Below, in pieces: positions 22,526 to 22,867 of a stretch of DNA of 64,000 bases. Every line of letters starts with the position of its first letter. Positions within the stretch are counted from its first letter, which is position 1. Below the pieces are notes generated by a model, which saw only the letters and a program-made list of their open reading frames with translations, did no database searches and was not told the DNA's origin. The stretch is taken from assembly GCF_003790525.1 (NCBI RefSeq), contig NZ_CP033635.1. One strand, written 5' to 3'. The position numbers were made by a program, and so were the translations under genes. Source of the DNA: Escherichia coli. Its GTDB lineage: Bacteria; Pseudomonadota; Gammaproteobacteria; Enterobacterales; Enterobacteriaceae.

Positions 22526-22736
22526 GGGGGACAAAAACTGTCAATGGGCAAAAATTTTCGTTATCAGGAATGTATAAAATTAAATCAATTGAGCAAAAAA
22601 TCCTTTCTGCAAAACTAAAAAAGATTTCAATAAAATCAGGCAGTTAAAAACGCTGAAAAACGGTATAAAAAAGCATCTCAAAATCCTGTTTTTTCTTTCA
22701 GATACAATATCTTATTTGATTTTTTAAAACCTGCCA

Positions 22737-22853
22737 GTGTGGTACATGGATATCGATACCACCGCCAATTATAAACTGGGCGGTGCACAGCAACACGATA
22801 GCGTACGCCTCGATCCGTGGGTGTTTATGTTCTCAGCAGGATATCGTTTTTAA
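22737..22853 (+). pseudogene. ompW: ompW 3'-terminal fragment at prophage attR
   Basis: Translation VWYMDIDTTANYKLGGAQQHDSVRLDPWVFMFSAGYRF stop matches OmpW C-terminus; in-frame TAA just upstream at 22725-22727; AT-rich arm to the left. Confidence 0.8.
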
Positions 22854-22867
22854 TTCCGCACAAAAAC

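Follow-up and report, generated by a model that had tools for sequence, protein, structure and literature searches.

A short fragment of ompW in the stretch of Escherichia coli DNA studied here – called the window below, meaning the whole 64 kb analysed – marks, in our reading, the place where a prophage ends. We take positions 22735–22855 to be the attR of a lambda-like temperate phage, belonging to the published PPompW group, that integrated in the 3′ part of ompW, and we put the probability of this reading at roughly 93%. The feature itself is already published and very common, occurring in about one-third of complete E. coli genomes.

PPompW prophages were described as lambda-like prophages in ompW bounded by a 121-bp attL/R, and were found in 44% of 767 complete genomes (Nakamura et al. 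2021, PLoS Pathog, PMC8112680). In O145:H28 they were excised and circularised after mitomycin C, and sequencing of attP from the circles confirmed the att site (PMC8112680). The corresponding GenBank records, entitled "Enterobacteria phage PPompW_...", carry 121-bp repeat_regions labelled "duplication due to insertion of PPompW". In our own survey of 5426 complete E. coli genomes, an attL-type junction – ompW beside an arm-binding integrase, by annotation – was present in 1728 (32%), and the attR arm together with the junction was matched at a coverage of at least 80% in 922 genomes.

The displaced end of ompW

The open reading frame at 22737–22853 on the plus strand translates to VWYMDIDTTANYKLGGAQQHDSVRLDPWVFMFSAGYRF followed by a stop codon. 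Its coding part (22737–22850, with the stop at 22851–22853) specifies the last 38 residues of OmpW, as the initial annotation had proposed from the sequence: all 38 match residues 175–212 of the K-12 protein, and 116 of the 117 nt are identical (K-12 MG1655, NC_000913.3). A search of the window by blastn with K-12 ompW returns this stretch with E = 1e-57, so that a match by chance is of no concern. A full-length ompW upstream of the fragment, which had been named as the observation that would contradict a displaced tail, was looked for in the 64 kb of the window and not found; nothing of the gene but its last 126 nt is present there.

Followed backwards from the fragment, the reading frame passes through cca, ctg and aac before it meets taa, the in-frame stop that had been placed directly upstream and that we read at the position given in Table 1; in the attP of phage 204576, a TGA occupies the matching position. 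No evident start signals (promoter, ribosome site) stand before the tail, which is preceded by the phage-supplied stop. The upstream DNA had also been called AT-rich and phage-arm-like, and the segment 22540–22734 indeed has a GC content of 27%, against 51% for the whole window. Comparison with the uninterrupted K-12 ompW–yciE locus, the check suggested at the outset, places the start of nucleotide homology at 22728. In TUM1886, RM9088 and other genomes, the same fragment is labelled by NCBI as 'OmpW family outer membrane protein, incomplete, missing N-terminus' (partial pseudogene).

On the host side, the gene order – yciE, yciF, yciG, trpA–E – is that of K-12. The claim that the native terminator and yciE follow the fragment holds as far as presence goes, with a K-12-identical hairpin and then yciE, and has to be amended in two respects. 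As the T-run of the hairpin lies on the minus strand, the element is, formally, best seen as the yciE terminator, common to both convergent genes. Furthermore, yciE itself (22913–23419, minus strand) is a pseudogene when compared with K-12: codon 26 reads TAA in place of GAA, and one nucleotide is missing near codon 52. TUM1886 and the other genomes examined have an intact yciE.

Table 1. Features of the prophage, its right attachment site and the adjoining chromosome (positions in the window).
Feature	Position	Strand	Remarks
Right 22.7 kb of lambda-like prophage	1–22734	+	Tail genes, J, tail fibre, YadA-like adhesin, HTH protein, DinI, RNA elements, three IS
IS1414-like (IS256 family)	11230–12549		Inside tail-fibre region
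IS66-family element (ISCro1-like, 98.8%)	12545–15209		Inside tail-fibre region, beside IS1414-like copy
IS1414-like (IS256 family)	20467–21781		The only one of the three IS also in TUM1886
C4-like match	22318–22404	-	28.5 bits, below Rfam threshold
isrK	22432–22508	-	Rfam, 69 bits (threshold 50)
c4-a1b1	22469–22521	-	Rfam, 51 bits (threshold 46.7)
Near-consensus promoter	22544–22515	-	
Conserved P arm of attP	22605–22734	+	27% GC; homology among diverged ompW prophages starts here and runs to the core
Candidate arm-type integrase site, CTGCAAAAC	22607–22615	+	Outer P-arm edge, 128 bp from core; invariant in 8/8 arms
IHF-like site, AATCAGGCAGTTA	22634–22646	+	Pattern scan; one mismatch to WATCAANNNNTTR
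In-frame TAA	22725–22727	+	From phage P arm; shuts the ompW frame upstream of the fragment
Crossover (core) block, CAGTGTGGTACATGGATATCGA	22735–22756	+	ompW nt 521–542, codons 174–181; identical in attB, attP, attL and attR
Counterpart of the published 121-bp PPompW attR repeat	22735–22855	+	Core, host ompW tail, stop, TT; aligned to LC567822.1 repeat_region features and PMC8112680
Displaced native ompW 3′ end, codons 175–212 and stop	22737–22853	+	38/38 residues K-12-identical
Native hairpin terminator between convergent ompW and yciE	22867–22889		K-12-identical; terminator scan

The crossover block and the prophage to its left

The four attachment sites were compared using attB from K-12 ompW, attL from TUM1886 and PPompW_132418 (LC567822.1), attR from the window, TUM1886 and six further genomes, and attP from Escherichia phage 204576 (CP025907.1). 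A matching core, which had been expected at the other prophage end, does exist: the block CAGTGTGGTACATGGATATCGA is identical at the attL, attR, attB and attP of the records examined, attL and attP being taken from records other than the window. To the left of this block, attR is of phage type: positions 22731 and 22734 are both C, as against A and T in attB and attL. On the right side it is of host type from 22757 onwards, with T at that position, where the attL of TUM1886 has C. The base pattern of the TUM1886 attL is the mirror of that at attR. Because attR is thus phage-type on the left and host-type on the right, and attL the reverse, strand exchange for this phage type must have fallen inside the 22-bp block.

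The ompW fragment therewith fixes the right edge of the prophage to the base, at 22734/22735, and the published 121-bp PPompW att begins at the same base as the window core (22735; CAGTGTGG...; CAGTGTGGTACATGG...). That one 22-bp crossover block is common to two tail variants is a modest added detail. In CP025907.1, the attP is contiguous: the P arm (84% identical to that of the window) is followed by the core, an in-frame 38-codon ompW-like tail with its stop codon, three CTGCAAAAC repeats and, on the opposite strand, int.

The proposed course of integration is as follows. A lambda-type tyrosine integrase with an N-terminal arm-binding domain would have recombined attP with codons 174–181 of ompW (attB), the exchange taking place within the 22-bp core. 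The attP would carry, just past the core on the int side, its own diverged version of the last 38 ompW codons and a stop; at attL, the host 5′ part of ompW would be fused to this phage-borne tail, so that a 212-residue OmpW would still be encoded, and the original host tail would have been shifted by some 50 kb to attR, to lie there as a silent relic behind a phage-supplied stop. Excision by Int, Xis and probably IHF would rejoin the host tail and restore native ompW, the sole function left to this relic. The initial annotation had already suggested a phage that integrates in the 3′ end of ompW, brings a replacement 3′ end at attL and leaves the original tail at attR – a scheme supported by the attL of TUM1886 and the attP of CP025907.1.

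On the phage side of the junction, lambda-like genes, recognised by the Pfam families of the encoded proteins, occupy 1–22069. They encode, in order, the tail assembly chaperones G/T, the tape measure protein, M/L/K/I, J, a collagen-repeat tail fibre, a DUF4376 protein, a YadA-like adhesin, an HTH protein and DinI. This prophage is collinear with that of E. coli TUM1886 (NZ_CP128970.1), being 99.5–99.9% identical to it over the shared 23 kb except for two extra IS and the tail-fibre repeats; the best complete E. coli match to the window is only 99.1–99.6% identical. Beyond the shared part, the TUM1886 prophage has about 27 kb more, with genes for head, lysis, Q, replication and immunity and, at the end, exonuclease, xis and int; it measures about 50 kb in all. 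Its integrase, of 376 residues, is encoded beside a full-length ompW, at a distance of 45 bp from the ompW stop codon, and the NCBI annotation of TUM1886 accordingly has ompW at the int end and a partial OmpW pseudogene at the other.

In the window itself, no integrase homologue was found in the 64 kb. We infer an intact attL and int in the window's own strain, rather than reading them, because the left end lies outside the window and ompW prophages are reported to recombine with prophages at other loci and to give rise to inversions (PMC8112680). This is also the opening for the most serious of the alternatives, namely that an ompW-type integration was later rearranged – by recombination or inversion with another prophage, or by loss of the int end – leaving an orphan attR without attL and incapable of excision. 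Apart from the position of the left end outside the window, such a history would agree with the three IS and the dead neighbouring yciE, which suggest a decaying, IS-rich genome, with the inversions reported between ompW and ydfJ prophages (PMC8112680), and with the right end being itself a mosaic that contains an ssrA-type half site. Nonetheless, the window's 23 kb run collinear with a complete prophage that has both ends, that of TUM1886, and attL-type junctions were found in the genomes surveyed no less often than attR-type ones, which leaves later rearrangement as an unlikely explanation. Independently of that question, the copy in the window may have lost excision or particle formation, because it contains three IS and because all PPompW copies examined in the literature appear defective (PMC8112680). 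One of the IS insertions splits the tail-fibre gene.

Considerably less probable is a tandem or nested array in which the junction was made by another prophage than the one in the window. Arrangements of this sort are documented at ompW, where tandem PPompW (n = 4) and a prophage within a prophage have been reported in addition to inversions (PMC8112680), and some genomes have two places that match the P arm. However, the window has no second ompW core and lacks the 21-bp yecE-like attB-in-prophage site of PPompW, even when 3 mismatches are allowed; its tail module reaches attR unbroken save for the IS elements, and TUM1886 has a single prophage at ompW. Finally, the notion that the fragment was left over when ompW was destroyed non-specifically, for example through a deletion mediated by an IS or an illegitimate insertion, and is no site-specific att junction, can draw on the abundance of IS nearby (Table 1) yet deserves almost no credence, as no IS end lies at the breakpoint (the nearest IS ends at 21781), the same breakpoint base recurs in hundreds of genomes and in diverged prophages and coincides with the published att, and matching attP, attL and attB sequences all exist.

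Several further observations concern the cargo and flanks of these prophages. The YadA-like trimeric autotransporter gene (18218–19597, plus strand) encodes 459 residues counted from ATG, and a 515-residue version is present in TUM1886. Between 18743 and 19175, it contains 4.4 copies of a 99-bp (33-residue) unit at 98% identity; its similarity to EibC/EibD amounts to just 39% identity over the C-terminal third. At 15455–16221 (plus strand), in the tail-fibre gene, a 45-bp collagen-like unit (Gly-X-Y) is repeated about 17 times; the repeats differ from those of TUM1886 in number and sequence. On the chromosomal flank of attL in TUM1886, a partial YkgJ-family gene fragment is annotated at 29620–29709, in the interval from ompW to yciC, where K-12 has no annotated feature; attB sequences derived from ykgJ/ecpE are known to occur in prophages (PMC8112680).

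The phage arm and an inner ssrA-type half site

When the arms of eight ompW prophages (83–98% identical) were aligned, homology was seen to start abruptly at an invariant CTGCAAAAC and to continue for about 130 bp to the core, the sequences upstream of about 22605 being unrelated among the eight. Three independent records (TUM1886, LC567822 and phage 204576) have the same CTGCAAAAC three times in tandem, spaced by 11 and 13 bp, in the P′ arm directly beyond the stop codon of the phage-borne ompW tail. As a motif enriched in the 64-kb window it was rejected (1 occurrence found, 1.03 expected), and it is kept as a candidate because of its conservation across prophages and its triple repeat in P′; judged by these patterns in the DNA, it is a putative arm-type Int site. 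Within the same arm, the block containing the IHF-like site is conserved, and three other arms have the perfect consensus there (AATCAATCAGTTA), making IHF the predicted ligand of 22634–22646.

The integrase that would use these sites was studied in TUM1886 as a proxy for the window prophage. It has the Pfam domains Arm-DNA-bind_1 (E = 7e-20), Phage_int_M and Phage_integrase, and the Int of phage 204576 (CP025907.1) is 95.7% identical to it.

An ssrA-type half att site sits 370 bp inside attR. Its 25 nt, at 22341–22365, which we take to be the reverse complement of the last 25 nt of E. coli ssrA, give an Rfam tmRNA match far below threshold, and ARAGORN reports no tRNA or tmRNA in the window. 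The segment comprising DinI, an arm and this 25-mer (22060–22369) is 81–87% identical to the right ends of the ssrA-integrating phages PhiR12_1 to 5 and CP-1639, and 83.6% identical to the DinI–ssrA junction of about 380 O157, O111 and O145 genomes; at an identity of at least 99%, it is found in only about 18 of 5426 genomes. The likeness to the ssrA-type attP ends inside the core (...GTTGAACC), after which come a region with C4-like, a1b1 and isrK RNA elements and then the ompW-type P arm. The possibility that the ssrA-like sequence is an unoccupied attB-like site was considered and rejected: because its DinI-side flank matches the right arm of ssrA-integrating phages, we regard it as a half att (P–core) rather than an attB.

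Other genomes were inspected for counterparts of this site. In RM9088, which is without the relic, nothing resembling ssrA stands at the equivalent position. The O157 ssrA prophage, whose far end was examined to define the P′ arm, is a degraded remnant with no clear int, and to the right of the core the window bears no meaningful likeness to the left end of PhiR12_1.

Taken together, the RNA elements between 22318 and 22521 look like the leader of an immI operon of P1 type from which the antirepressor gene has been lost. In strain GF4 (record 1866–2630), an ORF6N antirepressor-like gene lies between two 26-bp direct repeats, AACCGGCGAGCCTTTCGGCTCCCCCA; relative to GF4, 716 bp between these repeats, the ORF6N gene included, are missing from both the window (at about 22362) and TUM1886, and one copy of the repeat remains at 22362–22387. 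The ssrA-type half site could be the scar of an ssrA phage that recombined site-specifically into a resident ompW prophage – a collapsed prophage-in-prophage – or could stem from a swap of the int/att module at the core.

The replacement tail, related systems and significance

At the attL of TUM1886, ompW is a full-length hybrid of 639 nt that encodes 212 residues, like the native gene, with its last 38 codons derived from the phage. Two variants of the phage-borne tail were seen, one of the TUM1886 type and one of the O145/204576 type. In both, the residue differences from host OmpW are confined to positions 185–196, where 8 codons differ in the TUM1886 type and 7 in the O145/204576 type; outside these residues, the ratio of synonymous to non-synonymous changes is 8:0 (TUM1886) and 5:0 (phage 204576). 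Since every change outside 185–196 is synonymous in these comparisons (8:0 and 5:0), the tail bears the signature of a retained coding sequence, with purifying selection acting on the flanking strands and the C-terminal ...YRF. In the proxy genomes on which the 3′-end substitution was tested, the ORF keeps its native length at attL, and the tail is coding.

OmpW has an 8-stranded fold, for which the structures PDB 2F1T, 2F1V and 2MHL exist. Given this known fold, residues 185–196 would correspond to the last surface loop. An AlphaFold2 model of OmpW, built from a 3-sequence alignment to place these residues, was unusable (pLDDT 29). A tail that rewrites only residues 185–196 could amount to a lysogenic conversion that alters a surface receptor. 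Taken jointly, this reading and that of the ssrA-type scar – both of which go beyond what we found published – are offered tentatively, and we consider them rather doubtful.

The closest relatives of the window prophage are the PPompW prophages themselves (LC567822 and relatives), known from STEC, EPEC and other E. coli, which share with it the target gene, the base at which att starts, the 121-bp imperfect duplication of the ompW 3′ end, a lambda-like backbone, the position of attR beside yciE and, to judge from the TUM1886 proxy (96% identical to IntE of PPompW_132418), the type of integrase. They differ from it in that the P arms are merely about 86% identical, in the tail variant – SYKFNGTPVKDA is linked to the lineage of the window, whereas PPompW has KYKSGVTTVKDS – and in the cargo of the right end, which consists of the YadA-like adhesin, HTH protein and DinI in the window but of a type III effector locus in PPompW. 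Phage 204576 likewise resembles the window in its homologous P arm and identical core, yet is represented by an un-annotated 31.5-kb record and has a tail of the O145 type. The prophage P-EibA of E. coli ECOR-9 (AF151091.1) ends on the right with the same P arm (83%), the core and the ompW tail, with surface adhesin/autotransporter cargo upstream, although its Eib adhesin is distant from that of the window (39% over the C-terminal third).

Beyond ompW, the best parallel is the integration of lambdoid elements – presumably those of the e14/phage 21 type – into icd, which differs in target gene and core but likewise takes place inside the 3′ part of a coding gene, the phage supplying a 3′ end, the ORF keeping its length and the old 3′ end being displaced as a pseudogene. 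Bobay et al. (2013, PMC3603311) described the substitution of the 3′ end of icd by the phage, with the displaced 3′ pseudogene at the other junction, and placed icd and ompW among the most occupied hotspots. The same authors appear to call the gene in their 'second case' (possibly ompW) disrupted (PMC3603311); in the prophages examined here, by contrast, the length of the ompW ORF is preserved (212 residues).

The ompW system is similar to lambda both in its Int, with arm-binding, core-binding and catalytic domains, and in its gene order, attL–int–xis ... tail–attR. The attP at ompW is also complex in the manner of lambda: its arms are long and AT-rich, P′ contains three candidate arm sites in tandem and P at least one such candidate, and one stretch resembles an IHF site. 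Unlike lambda, which integrates between genes (gal–bio) through a 15-bp core, phages of the ompW type have their core inside a coding sequence, and their attP contains about 100 bp of substitute coding sequence between the core and the P′ arm sites.

To what is published, the present analysis makes modest additions – the candidate arm-type sites CTGCAAAAC and the IHF-like site, both predicted from sequence, and evidence that the phage-borne tail is retained as coding sequence. Its main value lies in annotation: the 126-nt OmpW fragment is to be read as the marker of a prophage boundary and not as a decayed gene, at a locus that ranks among those into which phages integrate most often in E. coli and whose prophages carry virulence cargo and can host Stx phages.
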